Below are positions 14,781 through 43,554 of a stretch of 57,323 nt of DNA, one piece after another. The stretch lies in assembly GCA_964641945.1 (NCBI GenBank), contig CAZXLQ010000002.1, positions 1 through 57,323 of the forward strand. The letters run 5' to 3'. The notes beneath the pieces were generated by a model. The model searched no databases. It worked only from the letters and a program-made list of their open reading frames with translations, and had not been told where the DNA came from. The position numbers and the translations under genes are program-made. The DNA comes from an uncultured Clostridia bacterium (GTDB lineage Bacteria; Acidobacteriota; Blastocatellia; UBA7656; JADIYM01). Numbering within the stretch: the first letter of the stretch is position 1; the number at the start of each line of letters is the position of its first letter.

Positions 14781-14795
14781 GCAAACAACGTGCCG
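14781..14795 (-). promoter_or_regulatory. Sigma54 promoter P1 (GGCACG-TTGT-TTGCT) for the 10-gene RND1 operon
   Basis: The minus strand reads CCGGCACGTTGTTTGCTAC, an exact GG-N10-GC match to the extended consensus. The -12 element lies ~40 nt upstream of the ATG at 14739. Confidence 0.75.
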
Positions 14796-14894
14796 GGCCG
14801 ACACCGGGACACGGTCGACGCAGAAGTTGCTGCGATAGATGCCCTAGTGAATCCATTCGGCACGATACTTAGTATGTTGGACGCGCCGCCAAAC

Positions 14895-14930
14895 GTCTGG
14901 TTTCAGACAGCGGGCTGTTTGAAACCAGAC
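14895..14930. promoter_or_regulatory. 36-bp near-perfect palindrome (17-bp arms, one mismatch); candidate enhancer (UAS) for P1
   Basis: Sequence is GTCTGGTTTCAGACAGC-GG-GCTGTTTGAAACCAGAC. It is centred ~117 bp upstream of the P1 -24 element and contains GTCTG-N4-CAGAC, which is also found upstream of P5. It could alternatively be the terminator hairpin of the decayed upstream gene. Confidence 0.45.
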
Positions 14931-14971
14931 AGTCCGTTCTAGCGTTGAAGGGGTTCGAGCACGTCGCGCCG

Positions 14972-15217
14972 TCAGTCAGCTTGTCCGCGCAGCATCCGCG
15001 TGCCGTAGGACCACACGTAGTCGCCGGCCTTGTCAGGCGTGAACTCGATCGTCGTCGTCGTTGATCGAGGGCACGTCGCGCGCAACTCCGAAGTGGCCGA
15101 ACACAACGTGCTGGCTGCACTGTGCCACTCGCACTCTCGGTGGCCATGTCGCGTGCGCCGACTGCACATTCCGGCACGCCATGCTGCCATCCGGACCTCG
15201 GTCTAGACCGAGGTCAT
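14972..15217 (-). pseudogene. Decayed cupredoxin-like (plastocyanin/EfeO-N type) gene remnant
   Basis: A GGGAGGA RBS and ATG are followed by an in-frame TAG after 4 codons. One frame gives ...CSQHVVFGHFGVARDVPSINDDDD and, after a frameshift in the GAC repeat, IEFTPDKAGDYVWSYGTRMLRG. The expected family motif is ...EFTP.KAGEY.F.CGMGMLRG, and the Cys/Met ligands are mutated. Confidence 0.5.
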
Positions 15218-15366
15218 GTAAATCCTCCCGTCGGCGTCGGCGAATAGGTACAGCGCCGCGCCTCCGGTCGAGGAAGAGTCCTGACTTTGCGATCGGCCTC
15301 GGCCCGGGTTGCAGCCCGAGCCGGGATCGAGGCCGGGCGCGTCGAAGATGACGAATCTGTCACGTA

Positions 15367-18638: not shown

Positions 18639-18812
18639 TTAAACGTGTCGACGTGGCGCGGCGGACTCCAACACGTCCTCGGGGGCCGGGATGATCTCGG
18701 GCTCGAGCGCGTCGGCGACCTCGTGGACCGGTGCTGCATCGAGGTGCGAGTCCTCGGGCCAGATGAAGTTCTCGTCGTCAAGGGTCATCCTGCATGTCCC
18801 GCACTGTTTCAT
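18639..18812 (-). CDS. Possible 57-aa acidic CxxC protein translationally coupled to the GH57 gene
   Basis: Not in the ORF track (below 60 aa). Sequence is MKQCGTCRMTLDDENFIWPEDSHLDAAPVHEVADALEPEIIPAPEDVLESAAPRRHV. It has an ATGA overlap with the GH57 stop and a strong GC3 bias. Confidence 0.45.
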   Translation of the reverse strand: MKQCGTCRMTLDDENFIWPEDSHLDAAPVHEVADALEPEIIPAPEDVLESAAPRRHV

Positions 18813-21268
18813 GATGACTCCTCTCCTTGGGCAACGGCAGCGTTGCGTGTGACGTTCGAAGTGACCTGTCTCGCATCGTCGACACCTTCATCCTCGCGTT
18901 CGCTGGGGTATCGCGACGCCATCGAGTCGATCACGTCGGCGGCGGGTCGCGCACCCGCGTCGCGAGGCGACTCGCGAGCGGAGTCCGCGTCGCCGACACG
19001 CACCCGCGTCACGCGCGCTTGGCAGCAAGAGTGCGTCTTCGTGCAGCCCTCGTGCTGGCATTCGAACATGAACTCGAGGAGGCTGGCCTCCGCTCCGAAG
19101 GGCCCGAGCACGAAAGAGTATCGACCCCTGCCCGCCATTACGCCGCCTTCGGGCGCGAGGTCCGCGCTCTCGGGTGCCGTGCCGTCGATCATCCAGCTGA
19201 GCCTCCCCGGGCAGTGCGTGCGGATCGTCAGGCGGTCGCGCGGTCCGACGCCGGCGACGGGCCGGCTGTGGGTCCAGACGACCGTGTGCAGCGCGATGTG
19301 CTCGTCGAGACGGCGCGGTGCGGCGGCGCCGAGCGACGCGTAGATCGCTTTCAGATGGCCCCGGTACACCTCGTCGAAGACCTCGTCGCGCCCCGAGTTC
19401 TGATCGTCGCCGTACCACCAGAACCAGTCGCTGCCCTCGGCCATGTAGGCCGAAAGGTAGGCCGACGGCGCGTCGGCCGGGGTCGCGCCGCTTGCGGCGA
19501 GAAACCGCCGCGCTTCGGCCAGGAGCCGCCACGCGCGGTTCTCCTCGTCCTCGCCGATCCACGTTCCGAGGTCGACGCCGGGCCGCGACCCCGCTTCGTC
19601 GATCCACGACCCGGTGAACAGGTCGTAGATTGCGGGCATCCGGTCGATCGGATGCGGCGCGACGCGGCGCAGAGCGTTGCCGCGGATGTACTCGCCGAAC
19701 GTCACGGTCCGCAGCTCGGGATCCCGCTCGAGCAGGTAGTACAGGGCCCGCAGGAACGGCCTGGCGTCCTCGCGGTACGACCCCCACGCGTTCTCGCCGT
19801 CGAGCGCGATCGCGAGGACTCGGTCGCCGGTGTCGCCGACCCGACGAGCGAAGCGCCCCTTCACGTCCGCGACGAATGCGCGAGCGGCGGCTTCGGGATC
19901 GTCGTACCGCCGAAAGTGGAATCCGATCGCGTCCGAGAGCCACGTGTCGCGGAAGTACACACACGGTCGCTCGAGATCGAAGGGGCGGTAGGGCTGGCAC
20001 AAGACGTCCGGAAGGTCGGCGTCGTATCCCCACCGGCCCGACCGCGCCAGGACGCCCTTGTCGGACGCCACCCACTCAATCCCATTTTCTTCGAACAGTG
20101 GAAGGACATCGTGCCCAACCGCGCCCTCCGCGGGCCACATGCCGGTCGGCCGCCGACCGAAGGCCCCCTCGTACCATTCGACGGCGAGCCGCACCTGTGC
20201 CGCCGCGTCTTCGGGGTAGTGGAACCGCAGAGGCAGTTTGGTACCCGGTCTATCCAGGGTCGCCCGATCCGTATCGACCAGCAACGGGAGGATGGGGTGG
20301 AAGAACGGCGTCGTCGAGATCTCGATCTGCCCGCAGTCCTGGAGGTAGCGGTGTAACGGGATGATGGCCTCCATGATCTTGTACTGCTCTTCGACCATCT
20401 CGTCGAGTTCGCTCGTCGTGAAGCCGCGCCCCTGCTCGACGAATCGCCGCACGCTTGCCGTCTCGCCCGTCGCGAGGTGGACGACGCCGTCGCGGAACTC
20501 CTTACCGAACCAGGCGAGGTTGAACCACATCTGCAGGTCGCGCACATCCTGCGCGTCGAAGGCCGCTCCTTCGTGCCGCTGCGCGAACAGCTCCGCGTAG
20601 CGCTCGTGGCCGAGGATCTGGTTGTGCCAGTCGGCGTCGAAGAAGCTCGACAACACGGCTTCACGCTCGGCGTCGTCGAGGAGTTCAGCCGGCTTGAGCG
20701 TGAGGTCGAGGGCACGGTCGGTGGCGCCTCGCTCGACGTAGTCCTCGATCTGCCACGCGAGAGCGGGCGTCAGGTTGATCGTTAGATGCAGATCGGGGTG
20801 CGCCGCGACGAGGTGCGCCATCGAGTAGTAGTCGCGTATCGCGTGTAGCCGGACCCACGGCAGCGCGTAGCTCCCATCCTGAACCGGGTGAAGCTCGTTT
20901 TTGTAAACCGGCTGGTGGTGGTGCCAGAGCATCGCGACGAAGAGCTTCGGCCCGACACGAAACGAGAAGTCCTCGGTCGCCGCGTCGCCGTCGTCGCCGC
21001 GCGCCCGGATGCGGTAGGTCACGTCGTCGCCATCGGCGAATGGCCCGAGGGTCGCAGACCAATAACTGTTCTCGCCGCGATTCTCTCGCCATCCGCATGG
21101 CGCGATGTCGGATCGCAGCCCGCCGTCCGTGCCGCGAACCCTCACCTCCACCCATACCCTTTGCCTCGGCGCGACGGGCCACGTGCCCGCTTGCATGGTC
21201 GCCCTCTCGCCCGCGCTGACCCGCCGCGGCTCTCGCTGAGCATCTGGTGTCGAGTGCCAGACATGCAT
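18809..21268 (-). CDS. Glycoside hydrolase family 57 protein with N- and C-terminal extensions
   Basis: 819 aa. The GH57 core motifs are MLWHHHQPVY..., PWVRLHAIRDYY and TINLTPAL. GGAGGG RBS. It has a ~110-aa N-terminal beta-rich domain and a long C-terminal region. Confidence 0.8.
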   Translation of the reverse strand: MHVWHSTPDAQREPRRVSAGERATMQAGTWPVAPRQRVWVEVRVRGTDGGLRSDIAPCGWRENRGENSYWSATLGPFADGDDVTYRIRARGDDGDAATEDFSFRVGPKLFVAMLWHHHQPVYKNELHPVQDGSYALPWVRLHAIRDYYSMAHLVAAHPDLHLTINLTPALAWQIEDYVERGATDRALDLTLKPAELLDDAEREAVLSSFFDADWHNQILGHERYAELFAQRHEGAAFDAQDVRDLQMWFNLAWFGKEFRDGVVHLATGETASVRRFVEQGRGFTTSELDEMVEEQYKIMEAIIPLHRYLQDCGQIEISTTPFFHPILPLLVDTDRATLDRPGTKLPLRFHYPEDAAAQVRLAVEWYEGAFGRRPTGMWPAEGAVGHDVLPLFEENGIEWVASDKGVLARSGRWGYDADLPDVLCQPYRPFDLERPCVYFRDTWLSDAIGFHFRRYDDPEAAARAFVADVKGRFARRVGDTGDRVLAIALDGENAWGSYREDARPFLRALYYLLERDPELRTVTFGEYIRGNALRRVAPHPIDRMPAIYDLFTGSWIDEAGSRPGVDLGTWIGEDEENRAWRLLAEARRFLAASGATPADAPSAYLSAYMAEGSDWFWWYGDDQNSGRDEVFDEVYRGHLKAIYASLGAAAPRRLDEHIALHTVVWTHSRPVAGVGPRDRLTIRTHCPGRLSWMIDGTAPESADLAPEGGVMAGRGRYSFVLGPFGAEASLLEFMFECQHEGCTKTHSCCQARVTRVRVGDADSARESPRDAGARPAADVIDSMASRYPSEREDEGVDDARQVTSNVTRNAAVAQGEESS

Positions 21269-21524: not shown

Positions 21525-21666
21525 GCGCGCGGCCCGGCGACATCGCGCGAGCATCAGGGGCGCAAACCTTGATGAGCAGGGCGCCACGGGCGGCCTCGTC
21601 CAGATGCCGCGAGGCGCGATCCCAATCCGGGGTGCGGAAAACCGCGCTCCCCGCCGCGAACTATTC

Positions 21667-21720
21667 CGTAAGTTTATATTCTATTTAGATTTACGAGTTT
21701 ATCTTGTGTTTATGTTCGTC
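21667..21720. repeat. AT-rich block with four phased (G/A)TTTA(T/G) boxes (copy A)
   Basis: Sequence is CGTAAGTTTATATTCTATTTAGATTTACGAGTTTATCTTGTGTTTATGTTCGTC, with box spacing 11-14-11. By hand alignment, 46 of 54 positions are identical to the reverse complement of 43712-43765. Confidence 0.6.
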
Positions 21721-21869
21721 TGACGCTCTTGTTATCCGACGCTGGCTTTGACGGACTCAGCGTGCCACTTGTCGCGACGCCAATTGAGCGTTGGCGGAGC
21801 AGCGTTCGGCCCGGAGGCCCGAAGCAGGCGGCTTTCTCGTTTCACAGACGAGAGGCCAAATCCAGATCG

Positions 21870-21885
21870 CGGTACGGCGATTGCC
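21870..21885 (+). promoter_or_regulatory. Sigma54-like promoter retained in the OMF relic (CGGTACG-GCGA-TTGCC), pointing at the LTXXQ gene
   Basis: Correct GG-N10-GC spacing. It is identical in core to the element upstream of OMF 2 (43539-43554). Confidence 0.4.
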
Positions 21886-22127
21886 GAAGAAACGTCGTAC
21901 GCATGTCGATCGCGATCTCGGGGGCGCGCCCCCCAACTGCTTCTTGATGACGTCATCGCGGAGGCACTCGAGCACAACCCGGTGCGAGAACTCTTCAGTC
22001 CCAGAACGGCCAGCAATGCCGAGGAATAACTGATTTAGGAACAGTTATCGTGAATTTAACAACTGCGATGGGATCAATGTACAGAAGGGCGCAAATCATT
22101 CGATCTTGGCAGCGGGCGCGACGGCCG

Positions 22128-22259: not shown

Positions 22260-22799
22260 ATGGAAATCACCGTGTTCCGACGATCCATCGCGACGGTGCT
22301 GCTCGCGATGCTCGTGCCAGCGGCTGTCGTGGCGCAGCACGACAAGCGACCGCCGGCGGCACGCGGAAAGAGCACCTTTCTCGGAGACGGCATGGGTACG
22401 ATCACCCCGAGCCTCATGGAGGTCGCGACGAAAACGAACCTCTTTCTCGCGATCGCCGACCAGATCAGTTTGACCGAGGCGCAGCGCCGCGAGATCACCG
22501 ACATCGTATTTCGATTGCAGCGCGACGCCGGTGAGACGAGGGGCGACCTCGGCGTGGCGCAAGCGGAGTTTCAGCGTATGCTCGGCCGCGACCGAATCGA
22601 CCTCGAGGCGCTCCGAACCAATCTCGCTCAGGTCCGTGCGCTCGAGACCGACCTCGAGTTCCTCACCTTCGAGGCGTTGCTGCGGGCGATCGGCGTCCTG
22701 ACGCACGAGCAGCACCTCCGCGTCATCGGCCTCGCGACGATGCCAGGTCGCGCACAGGCCGCCGCCCCCGTGCGGCCTGGCCCGGACGAATTCCGCTAG
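22260..22799 (+). CDS. LTXXQ-motif periplasmic protein (Spy/CpxP/ZraP family)
   Basis: Start at MEITVFRRSIATVLLAMLVPAAVVAQ, preceded by TAGGAGG. Two LTXXQ motifs are present (SLTEAQRREI and VLTHEQHLRV) in a helical, charged sequence. Confidence 0.75.
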   Translation: MEITVFRRSIATVLLAMLVPAAVVAQHDKRPPAARGKSTFLGDGMGTITPSLMEVATKTNLFLAIADQISLTEAQRREITDIVFRLQRDAGETRGDLGVAQAEFQRMLGRDRIDLEALRTNLAQVRALETDLEFLTFEALLRAIGVLTHEQHLRVIGLATMPGRAQAAAPVRPGPDEFR

Positions 22800-22910
22800 G
22801 ACTCGCGCTCCGGCAGGACTCGTAGCTGTACGCAGAGGCGCGAGCGTCGACGGCAGCGGCGAGCGGGAGTCGCACGCCGACGGCGATGTCCGGACGGGCA
22901 CATTGTCGGG

Positions 22911-22980
22911 GGAGTGCAAGGGCAAGGAACGGACGAGGACGGGTCAACAGTTCTCGCCAATCCGTCGTCGTGTCCACGAT
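22911..22980. repeat. 70-bp direct duplicate of an internal MFS-gene segment
   Basis: About 64 of 70 positions match 24433-24502 by hand alignment (the region encoding DTTTDWR.LL.R.RP.LALAL). It abuts the transposase fragment. Confidence 0.7.
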
Positions 22981-23330
22981 AGGCGCGCTGCGCCTCCTCG
23001 GTCATCTGCCAGTCGCTGATTCGCTTGAGCTGCTTATAGGCAACACCCTGCGTGATCTGGGCCATCGTGTGCAGGCCGATGTTGCAGCCGTGCGCCAACG
23101 TTGCTGCCAGGATCATGCACACGTCTTCGGAATCCCGTCCTCCTCGCTGGGCCGGAGACAGGAAGTGATCGGTGAAGCGCAAGTCGTTATCGACCTCGAT
23201 GAGCAGGTCCGGAAGCCGGCTCGTGCGCATCTGCCTGGTCAGCCATCGTTTCAGGTCGCCCAGCCGTGTTTGCGCCGCTTCGTCCAACGTCTCGGTGGCG
23301 TCGGTGGACAGGCGCCATCTGCCTTTGTCC
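22981..23330 (-). mobile_element. Internal fragment (~116 aa) of a Tn3-family transposase
   Basis: Sequence is ...RLPDLLIEVDNDLRFTDHFL...DSEDVCMILAATLAHGCNIGLHTMAQITQGVAYKQLKRISDWQMTEEAQRA. This resembles the central DDE_Tnp_Tn3 region. It is truncated at both ends by unrelated sequence, and no terminal inverted repeats were recognised. Confidence 0.6.
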
Positions 23331-23748
23331 ACCGATGAGCGACAGCTTTCCAGGCCACATCATTTCCTGCTGTGACGGTGACGATGCGGCGGCTCGACGG
23401 GTCGCCGTTCTGGACGTCGAAGGGGACGATGCTCCCCATCGAGTCGACCTCGAACATCGGCTGAGGCCAGGCTTTCGCTTGCGGAGTGCGAGCCTGCATT
23501 GCATCGAAGCTGCGAGCCATGGCCGCGATCGCGGGGTTGTGCTCGAGCGCGTCATCCACCAGCTCGCGGAGCACCGCGACGGAGTGTGCGGGCACGGAGC
23601 GCTCCGGCACCGGTGCGGCGATATTGATCGAGGGGCGCGGCGCAGGAAGCTCTGCCGAGCTCGACGGCTGCGCCTGCCCGTAAGCGCTCGTGCCGGGAAG
23701 CGTGAGCACGATGAGTACGAGAGCCCTCAACGCCTTCTTCGTATGCAT
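23331..23748 (-). pseudogene. 5'-truncated copy of an OMF gene (N-terminal ~135 aa), interrupted by the transposase fragment
   Basis: GGAGGA RBS and signal peptide MHTKKALRALVLIVLTLPGTSAYGQ. The segment VDDALEHNPAIAAMARSFDAMQARTPQAKAWPQPMFEVDSMGSIVPFDVQNGDPSSRRIVTVT is about 80% identical to OMF 2. A frameshift follows, then QEMMWPGKLSLIG, and homology ends. Confidence 0.7.
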
Positions 23749-23902
23749 GGCATGTCCTCCGGGTTCCTGGGGCCAGGCCGTTCTTCGCTCGAGCCGACGG
23801 CAACTGCCGTGCCAGTCAACGTGGATTCGTGGGCAGTCATCGGTCGGCGCAGTCACGGATTCCCTCGCGAGTTGACGTCCGCTGTTGCGGTCGTTTTCTT
23901 CA

Positions 23903-25138
23903 TCAAGCGAGTCTGGCCTCGCGAGCCCGATCCAGCACGTTCCAGGCGACCATCAATGCGAGCGCGACCAGCAACGCACCACTGAGCAAATACGGCGCGT
24001 CGACATGCCAGATGAAGAGCATACCGCCCAGGAGGGGTCCGATCGCCTGTCCGAGACTGTTGGCGGCGTTCTGAATACCGAGCGACGCCCCGGTACTTCC
24101 TTCTCCGCCGCGCGTCGAGATGAGGGCCGCCAGATTCGGCGCGATGAAAGCCATCCCGAATGCGAGCAATGCGACAAAGGCGAAGACAAAGAACGATGTC
24201 CGAGCTGTCGCAAGCAACGCGATGCCGGTACCCATCAAGGCAAAGCCAATGCCAATCTGGAGCATCTCGCCAACTCGTCCGGCAAGGAATCCAACAGCGC
24301 CTGCCTGAAAGACGGTCATCACCAGGCCGCACACGACAAAGATGTATCCGACCTCGACGGGTCCGAAATCGAACTTCGCCTTCGCGTAGAGCGCGATCGT
24401 CCCCTCGAACATCGTCAGGGCAAGTTGTCCGGCGAGTGCAAGGGCAAGGAGCGGACGAAGACGGATTAACAGTCCTCGCCAATCCGTCGTCGTGTCCACG
24501 ATCGGCTCATCCGCCGGTCCTGCTGGCCTGGACTCCGGCAGCCAGCGCAATGCCGCAAACAGCGTCACAAGACCTAACACCGCTGCCGCAAAAAACGGAA
24601 TCGAAAAGGCGTCAAACGTTAAGTGGCCGATGCTCCATCGCAAATGAATCTCACTGCGAGACAGCAATCCGCCAAGTGCTGGTCCGACAACGACGCCGAG
24701 ACTCACCGCCGTGCCGAGCCACGCCATTCCGCGACTTCGCTGCTCTGGCGTCGTCATATCGGCAACGTAGGCCGCAGAAACCGGCAATGTCGCCGACGAC
24801 AATACTCCTCCGACGATTCGCGCTGCGTACAAGAGCCACAGCGACGTGGACAAACCGAACATCACTTGCGCCACAACGTAGCCCGCGATGCCAATGAGAA
24901 TCAGCGGTCTCCTGCCGATGCGATCCGACCAGCGTCCCCACAAAGGTGCGAAGACGAGTTGAGCGAGCGCGTACACACCAGTCAAAAGGCCGACGTGCAT
25001 CACCATTGACTGTTGCGTCGATCCCTCTTCCAACGCGAGGCGCTCCACGTAGAAGGGCAGCACGGGCATCGTAATGCCCAGGCCGATCATGACGACGAAC
25101 AGGCAGGCGAGAAGTACGAAGAGGTGCTTGTTGATCAC
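23903..25138 (-). CDS. MFS transporter (DHA1/tetracycline-efflux-like, 12 TM)
   Basis: 411 aa. Motif A-like sequence is GRWSDRIGRRPLILIG. The hydropathy pattern is typical of the family. Confidence 0.85.
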   Translation of the reverse strand: MINKHLFVLLACLFVVMIGLGITMPVLPFYVERLALEEGSTQQSMVMHVGLLTGVYALAQLVFAPLWGRWSDRIGRRPLILIGIAGYVVAQVMFGLSTSLWLLYAARIVGGVLSSATLPVSAAYVADMTTPEQRSRGMAWLGTAVSLGVVVGPALGGLLSRSEIHLRWSIGHLTFDAFSIPFFAAAVLGLVTLFAALRWLPESRPAGPADEPIVDTTTDWRGLLIRLRPLLALALAGQLALTMFEGTIALYAKAKFDFGPVEVGYIFVVCGLVMTVFQAGAVGFLAGRVGEMLQIGIGFALMGTGIALLATARTSFFVFAFVALLAFGMAFIAPNLAALISTRGGEGSTGASLGIQNAANSLGQAIGPLLGGMLFIWHVDAPYLLSGALLVALALMVAWNVLDRAREARLA

Positions 25139-25265
25139 GCCGAGGTCCTTCCGTGCGATGCGCTACAGGCGGTGACACGCACGGGCCGAGTCGCATCAGG
25201 CTCGCGACACCTGAGGACCGTTGGCGCGTTGCTTCTTGTCCAATTGCCGGCAAGGGGCTGTGGAC

Positions 25266-25280
25266 GCAACCCTCGTGCCG
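25266..25280 (-). promoter_or_regulatory. Sigma54 promoter P5 (GGCACG-AGGG-TTGCG) for the MFS transporter
   Basis: The minus strand reads CGGCACGAGGGTTGCGTC, an exact GGCACG-N4-TTGC match ~125 nt upstream of the ATG at 25138. Confidence 0.7.
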
Positions 25281-25352
25281 ACAAACGACGTCCTGAAATC
25301 CCGCTTTTCGTGCGTACTTTCTCGGACGAAGCGGAGCATCGCCCCACGAAAT

Positions 25353-25366
25353 GTCTGTCTTCAGAC
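25353..25366. promoter_or_regulatory. GTCTG-N4-CAGAC inverted repeat; candidate UAS for P5
   Basis: Sequence is GTCTGTCTTCAGAC, 73-86 bp upstream of the P5 -24 element. The same 5-4-5 element (GTCTGGTTTCAGAC) lies 100-113 bp upstream of P1. Confidence 0.4.
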
Positions 25367-25864
25367 ACGTCGATGTCTGCAGAGCCGTGATTCCCTGTCA
25401 TGGCAGCGACAGGGCCAACAGCGAGGAGCAGGCGACCGTCGCTGGAGACCTGCACGTTGTAGGGAGAGATGGACGTCGCAATCGATTTGACCTGACCGGT
25501 GCTGAGATCAATCACGGTGATGGAGTTGCCCCGCCCGTCGGCCGTAAACGCGAAACCCGCCCCCGGCAAAACCTCCGACGAGGCGGCGGCGGAAGACCCA
25601 TTGGAGTTGCCTGTTCGCTCCTGGTGAACGGCAGCTGGCCGTGAACAGGCGGCTACGAGAACAAACAGGGCCGTGAGTAATGCAGGCCAGGCGAATTTGT
25701 TCATTGAAAAGTCCCCCTTTTCGGAGATCCGAGTTGCCCGGAACCGTCTCTCCGGAGCGGGCAATCGGTGTCTCGAGTCGCTCACCAGTTGCGATCTCGG
25801 ACAGGCACATCGAATCGACAGAGACACGGCCAGCCGCACGCCAGTCGCTCTCCTTCCGTTCATC

Positions 25865-26260
25865 TCACACGGCGCCCTGCGACTTCTCCAGGCGGTGGAC
25901 GCTGACGGTGCCGCAGCAGCCTCCGGCGCTGTCTACGACGGGCAGGCTCGTCGCGCCGTGCTCGTGGAGTTTCCGGCGCGCATCGTCAACGGGCTCGTCT
26001 GCGCCACAACACGCCGACAACGGTCGCATTATCTCCTCGACGCGAACGGCCGAGGCATTGCGGTCTTCGGCAACCACGCCGCAACAGACATCGCGCTCGG
26101 TGACGACGCCGACCATCTTGAGGGTGTCTGTATCCTCGACGACAGGCGCGCAACCGCAGCCTGAATCGCGCATCGCCCGGGCGGCGTGTGCCGCCGTGTC
26201 CCGTGGCGAGCAGCACGAGGACGCTTCAATTGGTGTCATCACTTCATTGCAACAAGTCAT
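25865..26260 (-). CDS. CBS-pair domain protein with 12 cysteines arranged as five CC pairs and one CGC
   Basis: 131 aa with CBS-like periodicity (MTP...P.DT...A...M...G.G..PVVED...L.GVVTERDV, then EEIM...ADEPV..A...L.EHG...LPVVD). Cys pairs are TCCN, SCCS, GCGC, VCCG, ACCG and GCCG. Confidence 0.75.
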   Translation of the reverse strand: MTCCNEVMTPIEASSCCSPRDTAAHAARAMRDSGCGCAPVVEDTDTLKMVGVVTERDVCCGVVAEDRNASAVRVEEIMRPLSACCGADEPVDDARRKLHEHGATSLPVVDSAGGCCGTVSVHRLEKSQGAV

Positions 26261-26478: not shown

Positions 26479-26643
26479 TCACGCCTCGGCTGCCTTGCTT
26501 GCATACTGCTCCGGGTGTTCATCAAATTTCGTTTTGCAGCCTTCGCCGCAAAAGTGATACGTGGTCCCCTGGTGTGTTGACTGCAGTGCGGCCGTTTGAT
26601 CTTCGATCGTCATGCCGCAGACAGGATCTGTATGTGTCGCCAT
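26479..26643 (-). CDS. YHS/TRASH-domain mini-protein
   Basis: Start at MATHTDPVCGMTIEDQ...YHFCGEGCKTKFDEHPEQY, preceded by GAGGAG. The ORF-track start lies 30 codons further upstream. Confidence 0.8.
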   Translation of the reverse strand: MATHTDPVCGMTIEDQTAALQSTHQGTTYHFCGEGCKTKFDEHPEQYASKAAEA

Positions 26644-26805: not shown

Positions 26806-29391
26806 TCAACGAGTCGTTCCGGTTGCTGACACCGCTGGGACGGCATCGCCGTTTGATGTCGGCTTCGGGATGGCGGCACCCAGTGCAGGCGCCGAGGACT
26901 CGGTCATCTTCACGCGCTTGAGCAACAGCGCGTTGGCGACCACGATCAAGGTTGAACCGGACATCGAGAGTGCTGCGACCTCGGGGCTCAGCAGCCATCC
27001 GGTCATCGGATAGAGCACGCCGGCGGCGAGCGGGAAGGCAATGACGTTGTATCCGGCGGCCCACCACAGGTTCTGCCGCATCTTGCGCCTCGTGGCACGG
27101 CTCAGGATGACGGTGCCGATCACGTCGAACGGGTCGCTCTTCATTAGCACCACATCGGCGGTCTCCATTGCCACGTCCGTGCCCGCGCCGATGGCGATGC
27201 CAACGTCAGCCTGCGCCAGCGCCGGTGCATCGTTGATGCCGTCGCCCACCATGCCGACGCGCAGCCCGCGCGCCTGCATCTCTTTGACCTTCTCCGCCTT
27301 CTCGCCCGGCTGGACCTCGGCGAAGACCGTCGTGATGCCGAGCGCTTTGGCAACCAGGTTGGCAGTGCCTTGATTGTCACCCGTCAACATCGCCACCTCG
27401 ATGCCGAGCGCCGCCATTCGGTCGATCGCCTGTTTCGCGTTCGGGCGAATCGCGTCGGCGATGGCGATGAGTCCGCCCGCAAAACCATCAATGGCGCAGT
27501 AGACGACGGTGTTTCCTTTCTGCTCGAGCGCCCGCGCCCGGTCGTCCAGTCTCTCGAGGGAAATGCGGTTGTCGTCCATCAGCTTGCGATTGCCGGCGAG
27601 CACTGTGCGCCCGTCGACGGTCGCACGCGCGCCGTGCCCCGGAATCGCCTCGAAATTCGACGGCGCGCTGAGCGTCACGCCGTCAGCCTTCGCCTTCTCG
27701 ATGACGGCTTGCGCCAGCGGATGCTCACTCGATTGCTCGAGCGACGCGACGAGCCGCAACAGTTCCTTGTCATCGACAGGCGTTGCGTCGACGACGATCT
27801 CAATGACTTGAGGCTGGCCAATGGTGAGCGTGCCCGTCTTGTCGAAGATGATCGCTTGCAGTCGGCCCGCCTCTTCGAGCGCGGTCGCATCCTTGAACAG
27901 TACGCCGTTCTCGGCGCCCTTGCCGCTCGCGACCATGATCGCCATGGGCGTCGCGAGCCCAAGCGCGTCGGGACAGGCGATGACCACGACCGTAATCGCG
28001 AGCAGCATGGCGAAGACCGCGGTCGCTCCGGCGAGCCAGAACCAGACTACGAACGTTGCGAGGCCGAAGACGACTGCCGAGATGGTCAGCACCTGCGCGG
28101 CGCCGTCGGCGAGTCGCTGCGACGGTGCTTTGGAGTTCTGCGCGGCCTGGACGAGCTTGACGATCTGGGCGAGTGCGGTTTCGGCCCCGACTCTGGTGGC
28201 GCGGAAGCGAAACGTCCCAATCTTGTTGATCGTCGCGCCGATGACCGCATCGCCGACACCCTTTCTGACAGGCATACTCTCGCCCGTGATCATTGATTCG
28301 TCGACGTTCGACTCGCCCTCGATCACGTCCCCGTCCACCGGGAGCTTGTCGCCCGGGCGGATCATCACGATGTCGCCCGTGACAACCTCGGAGGTCGGAA
28401 CCTCGACAGGCAGACCCTCGCGTATCACCGTCGCTTTCGGCGGCGCGAGGCTGAGAAGCGTCTGAACGGCTTTCGATGCTCCGGCCCGAGCGCGCATCTC
28501 CAGCCAGTGCCCGAGCAGAATGAAGACGAGCAGCATGGCGACCGCTTCGTAGAAGACTTCGGCCGTGAAGAAGAAGGTGGCACCGACGCTGAAGAGATAG
28601 CCCGCCAGCACGGAGAGTGAAACGAGCACCGCCATGTTGGCGACACCGTTCCTGAGCGCCCGCCACGCGCCCACGTAAAAGACCCACCCGCCGTACACGA
28701 CCGCCGGAGTTACAAGCAGAAACCCCAGCAGTTCCTTCGAGATTCCAAACGGCGTTGACAACGCAATGCCAGTGAGTTGCTGGAACATCGGCGCGTAGAG
28801 GTAGATGAGGAATGCGAGGGCGAGCGTTACGAAGAAGCGGTTGCGCATGTCGCGCACCATCCCGTCCATTGACGCTCCCATCCCGTGACCCATCTCCTGG
28901 GCCATCTCCGTCTTGTCCCGCCCCATCTCGTACGCCCTATGACCGGCGTGATCGTCAGCCTTCGCGACGCTCGCGGGCGGCCGGGGTTCAGCCTTGCCCT
29001 TGTGCTCCAGCGGTTTGACAACTTGTGGCGTGGCTGGGGCTGCCGCCGTGATTCTCTCGGCAATCGGTTTGAGCGCCGAGGGCGTCGGAGACAGCGGCCC
29101 GTCATGACCCTGATGCTCCATCGCGCCGACAGCCGGCGTCTCAGCCGGTGTGTCCGGCTTGCAAACGTGCGCCGGCACGACCGCGCCGCGGCAGTGGTAT
29201 CCGCAATCGGCAATGAAGCGGTTGATGTCATCCAGCGCGACGCGAGCCTCGTCGTAATCGATGGTCGCCGTACCAGTCAGAAAGTTGACGTCCACGCGCA
29301 CGACACCGGCGCGGCGTCTGAGCCGCTTCTCGACGCCTGCGTGGTCGAGAACTGACATCATCCCGTCGATTGCCACAGATGTTGTCTTCAT
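26806..29391 (-). CDS. Heavy-metal P1B-type ATPase, CopB-like, with a CPD transmembrane motif and a degenerate HMA domain
   Basis: Start at [10 protein letters not shown]. Catalytic motifs are TGES, DKTGTLT, SEHPLA and [12 protein letters not shown]6 reads [12 protein letters not shown], and TM8 reads MSGST (P1B-3-like MSxST). The N-terminal ferredoxin-like domain has GMMSVLDH instead of GMTCxxC. A His/Met-rich linker is present ([31 protein letters not shown]). Confidence 0.9.
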
Positions 29392-29630: not shown

Positions 29631-30024
29631 TCAGCCGAAGACGCATCGATGCCGCGCGTTCGTTGCTGCAGATGAGACCTGCGCCAGCATGAATGGATGC
29701 GTTCGTTGCACAACATCCGTACAGGTGCACCAAAGCAGGACACTCGTCAAATGCCAAATGAATGCCGCAGGATGGAGAGTCCGACACTTGCCTTGTGTTC
29801 CGGACGAGCGACGCACAGTTCATGCCAAAGACCTCGCCGGGGAGGCCGCCCCTCCCGAAAGGACCTGAATCCGGAGCACGAGTGACGGGCTATCCTCGAC
29901 GTTTTGGGTCGGCGGCGGATTGAAATGAACGTGGCCGGAAGCGGCGGGCCGGATCCATGCCAGCACGCTGGCCCGAATCGAACTCCGGCCCTGCGGGAGC
30001 TCTCGCGGCCGCACCTTTCCTCGA

Positions 30025-30221: not shown

Positions 30222-30767
30222 ATGAAGACAAGAGCAGAGATCTCGATAGTCGCGTTGCTCGCGCTGACGATATTCGGCGCGGGAAGCGCGATGGCGCTCG
30301 CCCGACAGCATCATGGTGCGGAAAAGCCGATGCAGCACGGCACGGGGAAAATGGACATGTCCGGAATGATGGCCGAGCCGCACCACGTGCTCGCCATGGC
30401 CTACATGCAGAACCTGGGAGCATTCACGCACGCCCTGCGCCATCAGTCCGAAGCGGTCAGTCCGCTCGACGCGGCCTTTGCCCGCTCCGCGGTCGATGAG
30501 ATCAAGCGGAGCTTCGACGAGATGGAGAAGCATCACGGCGAGCACATGAAGACGATGAGCACTGAAATGCGCACGCACATGGAAGCGATGATGAAGGAAA
30601 TGGGTATGCACCGGGCCATGCTCAAGGACTCGGTCGGTGCTCTCGACAGGGACGTTCAATCCGACCATATCGACGCGAAGAAGGTGGCGGCGGACTGCGC
30701 GGTCATTCTCGAGCATCTCGATGCGATGTCGAAGATGCACGCCGACAAGAAGCCGATGAAGATGTAG
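30222..30767 (+). CDS. Secreted Met/His-rich all-helical protein (possible CopM/DUF305-like periplasmic copper binder)
   Basis: Start at MKTRAEISIVALLALTIFGAGSAMALA. The mature part has HHGAEKPMQHGTGKMDMSGMMAEPHH and EKHHGEHMKTMSTEMRTHMEAMMKEMGMH. The family name is a guess. Confidence 0.65.
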   Translation: MKTRAEISIVALLALTIFGAGSAMALARQHHGAEKPMQHGTGKMDMSGMMAEPHHVLAMAYMQNLGAFTHALRHQSEAVSPLDAAFARSAVDEIKRSFDEMEKHHGEHMKTMSTEMRTHMEAMMKEMGMHRAMLKDSVGALDRDVQSDHIDAKKVAADCAVILEHLDAMSKMHADKKPMKM

Positions 30768-32635: not shown

Positions 32636-33493
32636 TCACACTCGGATCAGGTCGACGGAAACCTCGAAATCGTCCGAAACCGTGAGGATGTGATTCGGAG
32701 CGACCCGTTTCCAACCGCGTCGTTCCTCCGTGAGAGGCTCGGAAGCGACGATTACCGACGGCTCGTCGGGCGGCCGACGTTCGAGCTTCGCCATTCCGTC
32801 GTCGAGGACGAGCTTCAGCCCAACGGCGAAATAGAGCGACACCGGCTCGAGCTGTGAGTCCGACCCGTAGCGGGCCATCGCCAGTCGCTCGCCGTCGGTG
32901 ACCGCGAAATTGTAGAAGGAAGGGGCGCAAACGCCGGCCTCCGAGGACCAGCGCTCGAGCCGTCGGATTGTCTCGACGAGCGCCTCACCCAGCGCGCTCG
33001 CCGAGTCGGGGCTGCCATCGCGAATGAGAGAGAGGAACACCGCGAAGGCGTGCTCGGAATCGGTCGTCCCCTGAATGCTCTCGTAGGCCGCGTCGTCGAG
33101 CGACGCGCGCAGTCGCCGCTTGATACTCGCGAATCCACCAATCGCGCCGTTGTGCATCCAGAGATAGGGGCCGCACTGGAACGGGTGGCAGTTCTCCTCG
33201 GAGACTCGCATCCCCGCGGAAGCGGCTCGCACGTGGGCGAAGAAACAGGGCGACCGGATGTGCCCCGCAAGGCGGCGCAGGTTCTGATTCCCCCAGGCGG
33301 GAGTCACGCTCGTGAAGACGCAGGGGGTCGCGTCCACGCCCGGTACGTACCACCCGACGCCGAATCCATCTCCATTGAGTGGTTCGGCCCGCTCGCGAGC
33401 CTTGTACGACTGCGTGATCAACGAATTCGGCGGTCCACAAAGCAGCTCTTCGAGAAGCAGCGCTGGCCCGCGATAACAGATGAACCTACACAT
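32636..33493 (-). CDS. Class-II (Ntn) glutamine amidotransferase, YafJ/EgtC-like
   Basis: N-terminal MCRFICYRG provides the Cys nucleophile directly after Met1. NGDGFGVGWY and HPF...WMHNGAIGGF motifs are present. It overlaps the upstream YHS gene by 8 nt. Confidence 0.75.
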   Translation of the reverse strand: MCRFICYRGPALLLEELLCGPPNSLITQSYKARERAEPLNGDGFGVGWYVPGVDATPCVFTSVTPAWGNQNLRRLAGHIRSPCFFAHVRAASAGMRVSEENCHPFQCGPYLWMHNGAIGGFASIKRRLRASLDDAAYESIQGTTDSEHAFAVFLSLIRDGSPDSASALGEALVETIRRLERWSSEAGVCAPSFYNFAVTDGERLAMARYGSDSQLEPVSLYFAVGLKLVLDDGMAKLERRPPDEPSVIVASEPLTEERRGWKRVAPNHILTVSDDFEVSVDLIRV

Positions 33494-33665
33494 CGTGCGC
33501 CACGTCGAGGGCGGGCGCCTCCTCGCCGGCGTAGTCCTCCGGATGGCGCTCGAATTCGAGCAGGCAATGCTCTGAGCAGAAGAGATAAACGCAGCCGCCG
33601 TATTCGAGCTCGAATGTCTCGGAGTCTCGACTGACGGCCATGCCGCAAACCGGATCCCAGGTCAT
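33486..33665 (-). CDS. YHS/TRASH-domain mini-protein
   Basis: Start at MTWDPVCGMAVSRDSETFELEYGGCVYLFCSEHCLLEFERHPEDY, with AGGAGG 7 nt upstream. Confidence 0.8.
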   Translation of the reverse strand: MTWDPVCGMAVSRDSETFELEYGGCVYLFCSEHCLLEFERHPEDYAGEEAPALDVAHDV

Positions 33666-40455: not shown

Positions 40456-41214
40456 TCAGTGCTGATGCTCCGCCGGTGGCGGCGCTGCGACGCGCAACGG
40501 AGCCGGACGGTAGATCCGCTCCCAGATTGCCTCGTAGGCTGCGTCCGGCATGGCTTCCTTCACCGCGAACGTGTAGGCCTTTGGCCCGCCCGATTCGCGC
40601 TCCCAGGTCGCGAGCTCGAGCCGGAACGGGTCCGGCCGGCTCACGCCTCGAAGATCGGACCAGAGCCACGTGCGCGATCCCTTTCCCGAGTCGGAAACGA
40701 AGACGAGCCGGTCGTCGTAGACCGCGATCGTCCCCTGGCAACCACCGAACCGGTGGTGGTGCTTGACGGCCAACTCGGCGATCGGCTGCCCTTCCCGGTC
40801 GGTGAACCAGGTGATGAACGGCTTCGGCATGCGGCTGCGCAGAAAGTCACTCACTTCGCTCGTCAGCTCGCCGCCGACGATCTCGAGCGTGAAGACCCTG
40901 TCCATTCCAAAGAACTTGTTGTCCTCGTAGGTCGTGATTCGAATTCGGGTCTTCGAAAGGACTTCGAGCCGCTGGATGTCGCGATACGTCCACGATCCGC
41001 CGTGCTCGCCGTCCTTCGATCGATACTCGACCTTCTCGGCGGTAAGCGTCAGCGTGCCGTCGCGGTCTCGCAGCATCCGGCCGTGCCGGACGGTAAACGT
41101 GTACTCCTGTGCATCCGGACCGTCCGCACTCGCCTTCGTCGACAACGACACCAGCGCCAGCGCGCACGCCGCGAGTGCCAGGATGACCCTTGTCGTGATG
41201 ATTCCGCTCTGCAT
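40456..41214 (-). CDS. Secreted protein of unknown function with two related ~100-aa repeats
   Basis: Start at MQSGIITTRVILALAACALALVSLSTKASA, preceded by GGGAGG. The two halves share a G.L.L....V.F.S......W.Y.DI pattern. An HHHRFGGCQG motif is present. The track ORF of 476 aa is an artefactual extension. Confidence 0.6.
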   Translation of the reverse strand: MQSGIITTRVILALAACALALVSLSTKASADGPDAQEYTFTVRHGRMLRDRDGTLTLTAEKVEYRSKDGEHGGSWTYRDIQRLEVLSKTRIRITTYEDNKFFGMDRVFTLEIVGGELTSEVSDFLRSRMPKPFITWFTDREGQPIAELAVKHHHRFGGCQGTIAVYDDRLVFVSDSGKGSRTWLWSDLRGVSRPDPFRLELATWERESGGPKAYTFAVKEAMPDAAYEAIWERIYRPAPLRVAAPPPAEHQH

Positions 41215-41233
41215 CGTGCGCCTCCCGATCCGA

Positions 41234-42136
41234 CTATTCCTTCCTGTCCCGTTGCGGCTCCGCGTCCATTCGCGACCAGATCGCGAGAACGGACGGGACA
41301 TACGCCAGCGTTTCGGCCGGCAGGAGCCGTCGCCTCGACATCTCGTCAAAGTCCCGGACTCCGGTCCGGCGAATGACGCTCCAGACTCTTCCCTCACCTG
41401 CGTTGTAGGCTGCGAGCGCGAGCTTCCAGTCGCCGAACTGGCCGTGCAGATCCCGCAAATACCGGGCTGCAGCTCGCGTCGCAAGCGCAGTGTGGGTCCG
41501 ATGATCGACCGCACCGTCAACCGAGAGCCCGTATCGGCGCGCAGTCGCCGGCATGAACTGCCACACACCGCGAGCGCCCTTCGGCGAGAGCGCCATCGGG
41601 TTGAACCCGCTCTCGACATACGCGACCGAGAGCAGGGCAAGCGGCACTCGCTCCTCGGCGAGTATCGGGCCGAGCGACACGCGCGCGGCGGCGAGTCGCG
41701 TGTGAAGCGCCCGGGGCAAGGGGCGCGCGTCGGGAAACACGAACCGCTCGGCAAGAGGCGTGGGCGACAAGGCCTCACGTTCAAGGGCGATCGCCTTTGC
41801 AAGTTCCCCGGCGAGGCTGTCGACGCTCGCGGGACCGAGCTCGGCGGCGATGTTCTCCGCAAATGCGAGAGAGGTGCTGGCCGCAACCATGTCGCCGCGC
41901 TTTCGCGCCACGACGCCTTCCGAGACGTGACGCGACGCTTCGATCACCTGCTCCGCGGTTCGAGCGCTTGCCTCGATCGAGCTCTCGATCCGCGCCATGG
42001 CGAGCGATACCGGATCGGTGGCGGGCTCCGGGGACGGCGCCTGCCATGCACCCGCCTCCGAGCCGAACGCGAACACGATGGCCAGGAGTGCGAGGATCGC
42101 TCGTTCGATCCGGAGAGACTTTCGGGAATCCGTCAT
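41234..42136 (-). CDS. Lytic transglycosylase (SLT domain) protein
   Basis: The catalytic region is LLSVAYVESGFNPMALSPKGARGVWQFMPATARRYGL, followed by AAYNAGEGRV. An N-terminal signal/anchor is present. It overlaps the OMF stop by 4 nt. Confidence 0.8.
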   Translation of the reverse strand: MTDSRKSLRIERAILALLAIVFAFGSEAGAWQAPSPEPATDPVSLAMARIESSIEASARTAEQVIEASRHVSEGVVARKRGDMVAASTSLAFAENIAAELGPASVDSLAGELAKAIALEREALSPTPLAERFVFPDARPLPRALHTRLAAARVSLGPILAEERVPLALLSVAYVESGFNPMALSPKGARGVWQFMPATARRYGLSVDGAVDHRTHTALATRAAARYLRDLHGQFGDWKLALAAYNAGEGRVWSVIRRTGVRDFDEMSRRRLLPAETLAYVPSVLAIWSRMDAEPQRDRKE

Positions 42137-43464
42137 CGGAGTAGCCTGCCGACGAGTGGCTCGATCATGGCAATGGCCTTCTCGAGGTTCGCCAGCTGTT
42201 CGTAGTAGCCGAGCTCGTAGGTAAAGAGCGTCTTCAGGTCGTCGAGCAGCATCAGGAAGTCGATGCCACCGGTTTCGTACGCGGCGATCCCGGACTCGAG
42301 CGTGAGCGTCGCCTGCGGTATCGTGGCCGTCGCGTAGAGATCCGCGAGCTTCTCGGACGTGAGCGCCATGAGATAGGCGTCCTTGATCTTGAAGAAGAGC
42401 AATGCCTGGGCGCTCTCGAGCCGCTTGCGTTCCGCTGCCATTGCCGAGGAGGCTTCGGCGACTGCCGGACGCTGTCTCTGCCAGAAGTAGAGAGGGAGCT
42501 TCACGCCGAACATCACGCCGTGCATTTCGGGCATGCCGGGCCGGTTGACGTAGGTGTAGGCGACGGACATGTCCGGGTAGAACTGCTTCTCGGCGAGCCG
42601 CAGGGCGAACTGCTCACGGTCGATGCGGCTTCTCTGCTGCCTGAGGATCGGGCTTGCCTGCGCCATTTCGTTGAGCAGATCGAGCGTGAAGTCGATCGGC
42701 CGCCGGACGATGTCCGCCGGCGCACCGAGCGGCGAGTCCGGGTCGCGGTACATCAACACGTTGAGCCGGGCCGCGGCCGACGCCTGGCGCTGCTCGAGCA
42801 TCGTGAGCATCTCGGTCATCCGCGTGACCTCGAGCTGCGCCTTCAGCAAGTCCTGCTGCATGCCCTTGCCGACGGCATACCGAGCCTCGGCGATCTTCGT
42901 CACGCGCTCCATCAGCAGCCGGTTCTTCGTGACGGTCTCGATGGCTTTCGCCAGGTAAGCAAGGTCGAAGTAGACGGCCTTGACGTCGGCGACGACCATT
43001 CGGCGAGACTGCTCGAAGGCCCACCACTCGGCTTCGGCCTCGGAGCCGGCCATCTTGCCCATCAGCGCGAGCTTGCCGGGCCACATGATCTCCTGTGTGA
43101 CGGTCACGATGCGGCCGCTCGACGGGTCGCCGTTCTGGACGTCGAACGGAACGATGCTGCCCATCGAACCGACCTCGAGCATCGGCTCGGGCCAGGCCTT
43201 GGCCTGCGGCACGCGAGCCGTCATGGCGTCGAAGTTGCGCGCCATCGCCGCGATCTCGGGGTTGTGCTCGAGCGCCTCGGCGATGACGTGATCAAGAAGC
43301 AGTTGCGGGGGTGCGTCCGGCGCGGAGCCGGCGCGAGCTTCTGCGCGAGGCGGTGTCGGCGTCGCGGACCCCGTCTCCATTCTTCCCTGCGCGAAAACAC
43401 TGCCGTGGGAAAGAACCACGGTCGCCACTGACACGGCGGTGAGTACTCGGTTCGTTCGGTTCAT
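42133..43464 (-). CDS. TolC/CusC-family outer-membrane efflux factor (OMF 2)
   Basis: Start at MNRTNRVLTAVSVATVVLSHGSVFAQG, preceded by GGAAGGA. It has a typical two-repeat OEP sequence. Confidence 0.85.
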   Translation of the reverse strand: MNRTNRVLTAVSVATVVLSHGSVFAQGRMETGSATPTPPRAEARAGSAPDAPPQLLLDHVIAEALEHNPEIAAMARNFDAMTARVPQAKAWPEPMLEVGSMGSIVPFDVQNGDPSSGRIVTVTQEIMWPGKLALMGKMAGSEAEAEWWAFEQSRRMVVADVKAVYFDLAYLAKAIETVTKNRLLMERVTKIAEARYAVGKGMQQDLLKAQLEVTRMTEMLTMLEQRQASAAARLNVLMYRDPDSPLGAPADIVRRPIDFTLDLLNEMAQASPILRQQRSRIDREQFALRLAEKQFYPDMSVAYTYVNRPGMPEMHGVMFGVKLPLYFWQRQRPAVAEASSAMAAERKRLESAQALLFFKIKDAYLMALTSEKLADLYATATIPQATLTLESGIAAYETGGIDFLMLLDDLKTLFTYELGYYEQLANLEKAIAMIEPLVGRLLR

Positions 43465-43538
43465 AGGCCGTTTTCCTTCCTGCGAGCCGAGTCGACGTGC
43501 CCACGAGATCACGAATCGACACGCGCGCGAGTTCCTTG

Positions 43539-43554
43539 AGCAATCGCCGTACCG
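43539..43554 (-). promoter_or_regulatory. Sigma54-like promoter P4 (CGGTACG-GCGA-TTGCT) for the OMF2-cus2 operon
   Basis: The minus strand reads GCGGTACGGCGATTGCTC, with correct GG-N10-GC spacing, ~75 nt upstream of the ATG at 43464. The same element is conserved in the relic copy at 21870-21885. Confidence 0.55.

Follow-up and report, generated by a model that had tools for sequence, protein, structure and literature searches.

The stretch of DNA analysed here (hereafter the window) comprises positions 1 to 57,323 of contig CAZXLQ010000002.1 of assembly GCA_964641945.1, derived from an uncultured soil-type bacterium, and it carries a metal-resistance island in whose intergenic regions near-consensus sigma-54 elements recur. 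Within its 57.3 kb (64.8% G+C, 14.4% of it intergenic) nine such elements were identified, six of them GGCACG-N4-TTGC, two GGTACG-N4-TTGC and one of TGGCGC type, and the GG and GC dinucleotides are at the canonical sigma-54 spacing, 10 nt apart, in 9/9. The original prediction had listed eight of these, all of which were recovered in place and on the strand claimed; its five exact GGCACG-N4-TTGC matches are real, and a sixth, at 23800-23813 on the minus strand, had been missed. Six exact matches compare with 0.20 expected (expected motif counts being the mean of 100 dinucleotide-preserving shuffles), with a shuffle maximum of two and none of the 100 reaching six, in agreement with the earlier hand estimate of well under one chance match, and the relaxed pattern GGYRCG-N4-TTGC occurs nine times against 1.1 expected. 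All GGYACG-N4-TTGC matches are intergenic (8/8; 0.144^8 ~ 2e-7) and co-oriented with the next gene (8/8), as had been proposed, with the qualification that one of them, at 21871, is a relic without a gene directly behind it; this match and the one at 43540 on the minus strand are copies of one duplicated ~330-bp region and hence not independent. A sigma-54 matrix scan gave 12 intergenic matches of at least 10 bits, against 1.6 expected under a Markov model of intergenic composition, and seven coding matches against ~6 expected, i.e. no excess; relative to its length, intergenic DNA contains ~10x as many matches as coding DNA. Of the 12 intergenic matches, ten are co-oriented with the downstream gene, and one, at 26570 (+), was found on the refined map to lie antisense within a small YHS gene; the finding thus withstood the scan for density and orientation that had been put forward as its check. 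A sigma-70 consensus scan (TTGACA/TATAAT) of these intergenic regions found no promoter, a terminator scan of intergenic regions gave no informative match, and neither an Rfam nor a tRNA scan of the window produced any hit.

On a gene map built from codon statistics, Pfam and public gene calls, the elements head the units that the prediction had named as targets, namely the RND1 (resistance-nodulation-division pump) operon and the units of the GH57, LTXXQ, major facilitator superfamily (MFS), P-type ATPase, Met/His-rich and OMF2-cus2 genes (OMF, outer-membrane factor), and they do so at 40-182 nt from the start codon, several starts having a GGAGG-type ribosome-binding site. The leftmost, P14781 (14780..14795, minus strand, CGGCACGTTGTTTGCT), is an exact GGCACG-N4-TTGC of 14.0 bits, 40 nt before an ATG with GGAGG, and heads a minus-strand operon whose first part reads unk196-OMF1-unk203-MFP1-unk298-RND1-unk166 (MFP, membrane fusion protein) and whose 3' part consists of an activator gene, its kinase gene HK1, a DUF4198 gene and probably also an LVIVD gene; the 196-aa product is a His-rich, membrane-anchored protein and the 298-aa product is likewise His-rich. 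P21510 (21509..21524, minus strand, CGGCACGCCAGTTGCC) lies 78 nt before a small open reading frame (ORF) starting at 21430, in a unit that encodes a 48-aa membrane ORF, the GH57-like protein, a 49-aa product, an FtrD-like protein, an FtsX/MacB protein, an ABC ATPase and a His-rich 152-aa protein. The relic P21871 occupies 21870..21885 on the plus strand (CGGTACGGCGATTGCC) and is followed by P22129 (22128..22143, plus strand, TGGCGCTTTACTTGCT), the intergenic TGGCGC-type element of 11.8 bits, which precedes by 116 nt the ATG of a gene (22260-22799) for an LTXXQ protein of the ZraP/CpxP/Spy-like type; this protein contains two LTXXQ motifs, falls short of the PF13801 cut-off (26.6 against 29.2 bits) and gave no match in a sequence search of the PDB. 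The newly added P23800 (23799..23814, minus strand, TGGCACGGCAGTTGCC) is a full TGGCACG element whose 15.5 bits tie for the best score in the window, and a truncated and frameshifted OMF gene (23251-23748) homologous to OMF2 (repeat D1) begins 50 nt further on, at an ATG served by a GGAGGA ribosome-binding site.

The MFS transporter gene (23903-25138) is headed by P25266 (25265..25280, minus strand, CGGCACGAGGGTTGCG), 126 nt before its start, and the P1B-type ATPase gene (26806-29433) by P29616 (29615..29630, minus strand, TGGCACGCTGATTGCC), of 15.5 bits, which lies 181 nt before the GTG of the 875-aa product and whose unit continues with a YHS gene (26479-26643), a CBS gene (25865-26260) and a truncated YVTN lipoprotein gene. 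A plus-strand ORF at 25697-26164 was rejected, the true genes there (CBS, YHS and truncated lipoprotein) being on the minus strand. The intergenic region of P29616 contains a second sigma-54-like site, TGGCATGAACTGTGCG (29812-29827, minus strand, 11.4 bits), ~200 nt further upstream. Just upstream of P29616 there is also an exact 11-nt direct repeat, GCGTTCGTTGC (29656-29666 and 29699-29709, 43 bp apart), which is local, with no further exact copy in the window, and may be a regulator site. Divergent from P29616 is P30025 (30024..30039, plus strand, AGGCACGTGAATTGCG), 182 nt before the ATG of the gene for the Met/His-rich protein (30222-30767), which is followed by genes for a 63-aa membrane peptide and a DUF302 protein. 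Finally, P43540 (43539..43554, minus strand, CGGTACGGCGATTGCT), of GGTACG type and 12.8 bits, lies 74 nt before the start codon of the cus2 unit, OMF2-SLT-unk252-MFP2-RND2, which possibly also includes the multicopper oxidase gene, and in which the CusB-like MFP2 carries a heavy-metal-binding domain. Small genes of the copper-binding YHS domain occur at two places in the island, at 26479-26643 (-) directly after the P-type ATPase gene and at 33486-33665 (-) after the multicopper oxidase gene; plain filters on ORF length overlook both.

The activator gene (4038..5444, minus strand) is situated inside the P14781 operon and encodes an NtrC-type enhancer-binding response regulator with a receiver domain, a sigma-54 AAA+ domain and a Fis-type helix-turn-helix (PF00072, PF00158 with E = 2e-70, PF25601 and PF02954). 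It contains GSFTGA, a variant of the GAFTGA loop, at residue 222, its database product is 467 aa long, and it scores below every NCBIfam equivalog cut-off, the best model being AtoC (487 against a cut-off of 714). In agreement with the prediction that only one activator gene is in view, Pfam domains and a tblastn search of the window revealed no AAA+ enhancer-binding protein besides this one. Its partner is the histidine kinase HK1 (2929..4041, minus strand; 370 aa; HisKA and HATPase domains), the N-terminus of which is a DUF4118-like membrane region with no periplasmic sensor domain; histidines of this membrane region are conserved in an alignment of orthologues, from which we infer that HK1 could sense metal through them.

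Upstream of P14781 a candidate enhancer, or upstream activating sequence, at 14894..14931 is composed of two 16-bp palindromes, CGTCTGGTTTCAGACA and TGTTTGAAACCAGACA, spaced 22 bp from centre to centre and set back from the -24 GG by 108 and 130 nt on its upstream side. A similar candidate is found upstream of P25266 at 25352..25411, where an exact palindrome, TGTCTGTCTTCAGACA (25352-25367), is accompanied by a TGTCTG half-site at 25374 and a TGTC-N8-GACA sequence at 25396-25411, again with centres 22 bp apart and beginning 80 nt upstream of the -24 GG. The pattern TGTCTG-N4-CAGACA with at most one mismatch occurs three times in the window against 0.05 expected, each time at enhancer distance from P14781 or P25266, and just once in ~2.5 Mb of unrelated loci. 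Such a tandem palindrome looks like a classical phased enhancer. As the activator gene is inside the operon headed by P14781, this operon is probably autoregulated, the RND1 operon activating itself through its own activator, and the shared palindrome suggests that the RND1 operon and the MFS gene probably share the island activator. The palindrome ties the activator to these two promoters only, and the implied model of a single activator for the whole island was not borne out.

We consider it probable, taking these observations together, that the elements are genuine RpoN -24/-12 promoters, one per cassette of a mosaic and probably mobile metal-resistance island whose own activator serves the RND1 operon and the MFS gene; that the promoters themselves are real is, judged from motif, spacing and placement, very probable. 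At each promoter sigma-54 holoenzyme would form a closed complex, and firing would require ATP hydrolysis by an AAA+ enhancer-binding protein that occupies an upstream site. The pair encoded at 2929-4041/4038-5444, at the 3' end of the RND1 operon, would most likely activate its own operon (positive autoregulation) as well as the MFS gene through the shared tandem TGTCTG-N4-CAGACA, with its 22-bp phasing, ~80-130 nt upstream of -24, the signal presumably being metal. The GH57, LTXXQ, truncated OMF, ATPase, Met/His-rich and cus2 promoters lack the palindrome and would probably respond to other enhancer-binding proteins encoded elsewhere in the genome. The description of the island as largely RpoN-dependent was an overstatement, as sigma-54 promoters were assigned to ~8 of ~14 transcription units, all between 14.7 and 43.6 kb, and CopR-type and ArsR regulators, the latter as an ArsR-rhodanese protein, are encoded in the window as well. 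The matrix scan gave no sigma-54-like element at the RND3-CDF (cation diffusion facilitator), MFS2, ArsR or CopR-type two-component genes. Beyond the right end of the window the island is continued in L163 (L-numbers denote fetched loci outside the window), a locus of the same metagenome-assembled genome (MAG; GCA_052035595.1) that carries a glycosyltransferase gene, a fourth OMF-MFP-RND set, a P-II gene and an HMA P-type ATPase gene, and at none of these genes was a sigma-54-like element of at least 10.5 bits detected.

A number of observations weigh against this interpretation. The scoring matrix is our own approximation of the published consensus, 5/9 elements lack the T before GG, and 6/9 carry C or G directly behind TTGC, a position at which the E. 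coli consensus prefers A/T. For six or seven promoters no shared enhancer could be recognised, and a classical regulator of CopR type adjoins cus2. Related loci were gathered with the ATPase, activator, MFS (in metagenomes) and GH57 proteins as queries, and against a background of 0.019 sites per upstream window, a sigma-54 site was found for 0/7 MFS, 1/43 ATPase, 0/3 Met/His-rich and 1/15 DUF302 orthologues. Target orthologues being mostly devoid of such sites, sigma-54 dependence would be specific to this lineage or island rather than inherent in the gene families, and for the same reason conservation cannot confirm the placement of the elements. All other island copies that were found are 100% identical, which leaves nothing to footprint; seven further contigs of other assemblies, for example, share the ATPase/Met-His intergenic region at 100% identity, and the collections searched held no moderately diverged syntenic relative of the island.

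The activator-kinase pair itself has more informative relatives. Its closest orthologues, 47-56% identical, come from MAGs that are labelled Pyrinomonadaceae or Acidobacteriota or are unclassified, and their genes are found in linkage with those for P-type ATPase, CDF and RND proteins. In two of these loci, L091 (18.7 bits) and L089 (15.6 bits), strong sigma-54 sites head MFP-RND-OMF operons beside the activator-kinase pair, each promoter with upstream repeats of its own, and in a third, L090, the order OMF-MFP-RND-activator-kinase is kept and the sigma-54 site is weak. The TGTCTG palindrome was sought near the activator orthologues and is absent there, different repeats taking its place. In three Acidobacteriota-type MAGs a conserved sigma-54-like element, TGGCTCGTGGTTTGC, is located 70-90 nt upstream of a multicopper oxidase gene that adjoins a GH57 orthologue (L176 9032-9047, L178 9084-9099 and L189 12628-12643); one of the three MAGs is labelled Heliomicrobium, probably owing to a mis-binned contig. 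The GH57-like protein of the window (18809-21268, minus strand, 819 aa) has an Lmo2446-like N-terminus and full-length orthologues, 50-62% identical, across many phyla, and these orthologues (L176, L178, L182, L185, L188 and L193) are often encoded within a few kb of P-type ATPase, RND, OMF and multicopper oxidase genes, making this protein an unexpected partner of metal-resistance genes.

For the cus2 promoter a different form of control was considered. Divergent from the cus2 operon, at 43940..46167 on the plus strand, are genes for a CopR/CusR-type response regulator of the OmpR family (PF00072 and PF00486; TIGR01387 cztR_silR_copR 261.4 bits, just under the cut-off of 279.2) and a HAMP histidine kinase, and between P43540 and the regulator gene there is an AT-rich box (43715..43775) of ~60 bp with four GTTTA/ATTTA repeats at offsets 0, 11, 25 and 36 within a 65% G+C context. 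This box is part of a 104-nt inverted repeat, I1 (82% identity), is conserved in both copies, the second being at 21660-21720, and has no other copy in the fetched loci; it may be a site for the CopR-type regulator or, alternatively, for integration host factor (IHF) or DNA bending. The box belongs to the larger duplication mentioned above, in which 21655-21980 is a decayed inverted copy of the P43540 region (43259-43777) that includes the box and the 5' end of the OMF gene, as detected through the inverted repeats I1 and I2 and by alignment, the two copies being ~71% identical. It is accordingly possible, if rather doubtful, that cus2 and the relic at 21.9 kb are controlled by the CopR/CusR-type system through the AT-rich box on a sigma-70 promoter, with GGTACG-N4-TTGC incidental or secondary. 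The classic divergent layout of cusRS/cusCFBA, the 261-bit match of the regulator to a heavy-metal model, the arrangement of the repeats in two pairs with 11 bp within each pair (typical of OmpR-family sites), the conservation of the box, which along with the promoter block and its leader ranks as the best preserved part of the duplicated region, and a -24 element that is GGTACG and not GGCACG are all consistent with such control. Nevertheless, no sigma-70 consensus was found between box and gene, the box is 160-230 nt from the gene-proximal element and so too far away for direct sigma-70 activation there, and the 16-nt sigma-54-like block, together with the adjacent leader, is almost unchanged between copies that are otherwise ~71% identical. 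Dual control of cus2 by sigma-54 and the CopR-type system could also coexist, as it does at M. xanthus copA (PMC3707914). Just 3' of the CopR-type kinase gene lies a 34-nt inverted repeat (46230-46324), the arms of which are 97% complementary and enclose a 27-nt loop; it could be a strong terminator or the end of a miniature mobile element.

That the regulator encoded at 4038-5444 drives all eight or nine promoters under one sensor appears improbable. It is the sole enhancer-binding protein encoded in 57 kb, enhancers can act over kilobases or from weak sites, and the looser pattern TGTC-N8-GACA occurs near the GH57 start as well (21248-21263). Against this, the palindrome is confined to two promoters, the looser pattern is near chance (four in the window against 0.97 expected), and neither the k-mers shared among six upstream regions nor a search for palindromes and direct repeats revealed an enhancer common to the other promoters. 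Candidate-phyla bacteria, moreover, typically carry many enhancer-binding activators, and the dual control of M. xanthus copA (PMC3707914) likewise speaks against a single input.

Still less credible is the notion that the motifs are non-promoter sigma-54 sites, serving for parking or as roadblocks, or have arisen by chance, with transcription starting from unrecognised sigma-70 or extracytoplasmic function (ECF) promoters. E. coli is reported to have many non-productive and intragenic sigma-54 sites (PMC4591121), one strong match here, TGGCATTGGCTTTGCC (24239-24254, minus strand, 13.8 bits), is inside the MFS gene, and a TTGACA/TATAAT scan may overlook the sigma-70 promoters of uncultured phyla with high G+C; yet the 30-fold enrichment, intergenic-only placement, correct orientation and sensible start distances of the elements, and the presence of an activator gene and enhancer-like palindromes, are difficult to reconcile with such sites. 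A non-promoter origin of the 14-mer, whether at the core of a dispersed repeat or of the end of a mobile element, or as an operator for some unrelated DNA-binding protein, has hardly any prospect, even though the island contains duplicated fragments and a Tn3 remnant and two elements lie in a duplicated segment. The element flanks are mutually unrelated apart from that one pair, the GG and GC blocks are invariant in sequence and spacing around a freely varying N4, a pattern that marks sigma-54, and the elements are asymmetric and always gene-directed.

The cassette aspect of the favoured interpretation, RpoN promoters distributed one to a unit, draws on the mosaic structure of the island. The stretch from 21.6 to 23.9 kb is a scrambled patchwork in which, in addition to the inverted copy of the P43540 region, a second OMF fragment is present in opposite orientation (23371-23553 corresponding to 43096-43278), and an 89-nt internal segment of the MFS gene has been copied (22896-22984 corresponding to 24418-24506). 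Between the LTXXQ and truncated OMF genes sits a fragment of a Tn3-family transposase gene (22796..23332, minus strand; PF01526 with E = 2.8e-14, profile positions 1-75 of 389), also called as a gene in L256, which is likely a scar of rearrangements. The ORF at 25135-25863 (-) encodes a lipoprotein with a YVTN beta-propeller-like repeat that after ~100 residues runs into the MFS enhancer and promoter, and P25266 and its upstream sites thus fall within the decayed 3' part of this ORF, which we take to be a gene truncated at a cassette junction; to judge by these junctions, the island looks like an assembly of promoter-plus-gene cassettes. Best protein matches are split among lineages, with the ATPase 85% identical to proteins of Gemmatimonadaceae-labelled MAGs and the activator (56%) and RND1 (74%) closest to Pyrinomonadaceae/Acidobacteriota MAGs. 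The left flank, beginning downstream of the LVIVD gene, differs between samples (L166 compared with L167/L168), with Kelch/SBBP-type proteins in one and a toxin-antitoxin pair and an HMA protein in others. The island proteins are unchanged in 35-90 blocks of public assemblies, suggesting a mobile or widely distributed element, and a plasmid database search gave no related plasmid. Dozens of public metagenome assemblies contain the island at 100% identity, and samples of the SRR27422804-SRR27422821 and SRR31850039/SRR31850043 series are among those carrying it. A more far-reaching proposal, possible but rather doubtful, is that of a modular, mobile 'sigma-54 regulon in a box', in which horizontally acquired genes, from families that elsewhere lack sigma-54 promoters, would each have been fitted with a near-consensus sigma-54 promoter and in two cases also with the enhancer of the island activator. 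The cassettes would have been shuffled by Tn3-type or recombinational events, and several activators would integrate the control, one of them with a partner kinase sensing metal via intramembrane histidines and not via a periplasmic domain. The window additionally encodes a DinB_2 and FGE-sulfatase protein of EgtB/OvoA-like architecture (55791-57119, plus strand) and an EgtC-like class-II glutamine amidotransferase (GATase_4; 32636-33493, minus strand), which hints at thiol-histidine (ergothioneine-type) chemistry tied to metal stress.

In textbook descriptions metal efflux is chiefly controlled by MerR, ArsR, CsoR or OmpR-type regulators acting at sigma-70 promoters. The island offers a well-defined and testable contrast, a multi-metal cluster most units of which are headed by predicted sigma-54 promoters and which encodes RND pumps, a P-type ATPase, an MFS protein and periplasmic proteins that bind metal. 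If the interpretation is true, enhancer-dependent, low-leak control of metal efflux would extend beyond Proteobacteria more widely than commonly supposed, this activator-kinase family would gain a candidate enhancer sequence and sensor, and promoter-plus-gene cassettes could be reshuffled inside a resistance island; if the regulon in a box also holds, multi-metal efflux would be under tight enhancer-dependent control.

Several known systems share parts of this design, and a resistance island under RpoN control is for that reason less unusual than had been supposed, precedents being provided by ZraSR-ZraP (PMC4987338), CorSR-curA (PMC3707914) and the activator-kinase orthologues beside sigma-54-headed RND operons in other MAGs. 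The candidate enhancers resemble those of GlrR and NtrC in their tandem inverted repeats, TGTC...GACA half-sites, whole-helical-turn phasing and position ~100-150 nt upstream, and differ from the GlrR site, TGTC-N10-GACA (table in PMC4987338), in the N8 between TGTC and GACA, in the longer TGTCTG/CAGACA half-site and in their unrelated targets. Enterobacterial ZraSR drives zraP, which encodes an LTXXQ protein, and zraSR from divergent sigma-54 promoters upon zinc (PMC4987338), and in this Zn/Pb envelope-stress system, as predicted for the island, sigma-54 acts with an autoregulated NtrC-family two-component pair in response to metal, the target being a periplasmic LTXXQ-family protein; the island LTXXQ gene, like zraP, has its own sigma-54-like element, 116 nt upstream. 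Unlike zraP, however, this gene is 17 kb from the two-component genes, is not divergent from them and lacks the activator-linked palindrome. The activator is not a ZraR equivalog (NF007689, 390.6 bits against a cut-off of 760), HK1 is without the ZraS-type periplasmic domain and matches ZraS only in its kinase core (residues 126-357), and ZraSR is not known to drive efflux pumps, as the island activator is proposed to do.

The cus2 operon is like CusRS/CopRS-cusCFBA in that genes for a CopR/CusR-like regulator and its kinase diverge from it and that the intergenic region contains a repeat box, the AT-rich repeats of which presumably differ from the E. coli CusR box. These systems belong to the OmpR family and use sigma-70, unlike the gene-proximal element of cus2, which is of sigma-54 type, no sigma-70 consensus having been found. 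In M. xanthus the genes for the sigma-54-dependent regulator CorR and its kinase CorS form part of the curA copper cluster, together with those for a multicopper oxidase, P1B ATPase and His-rich cupredoxin, and the cluster has four putative sigma-54 promoters (PMC3707914). The island differs from curA in that its sigma-54 units include heavy-metal RND operons, MFS and LTXXQ genes and a GH57/FtrD/ABC cluster, and in having eight or nine predicted promoters with at least two candidate enhancer types. CorS has a signal peptide, a periplasmic domain and a HAMP domain (PMC3707914), in contrast to HK1 with its solely membrane-embedded N-terminal region. CorSR-curA and the island are alike in that both combine an NtrC-type regulator and kinase within a metal cluster with several putative sigma-54 promoters, contain multicopper oxidase and P1B-type ATPase genes along with one for a His-rich or cupredoxin protein, and possess an extra type of regulator, which is the ECF sigma factor CorE in M. 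xanthus and the CopR-type system here. The island is thus another, larger example of a known but uncommon regulatory design and not a new mechanism.

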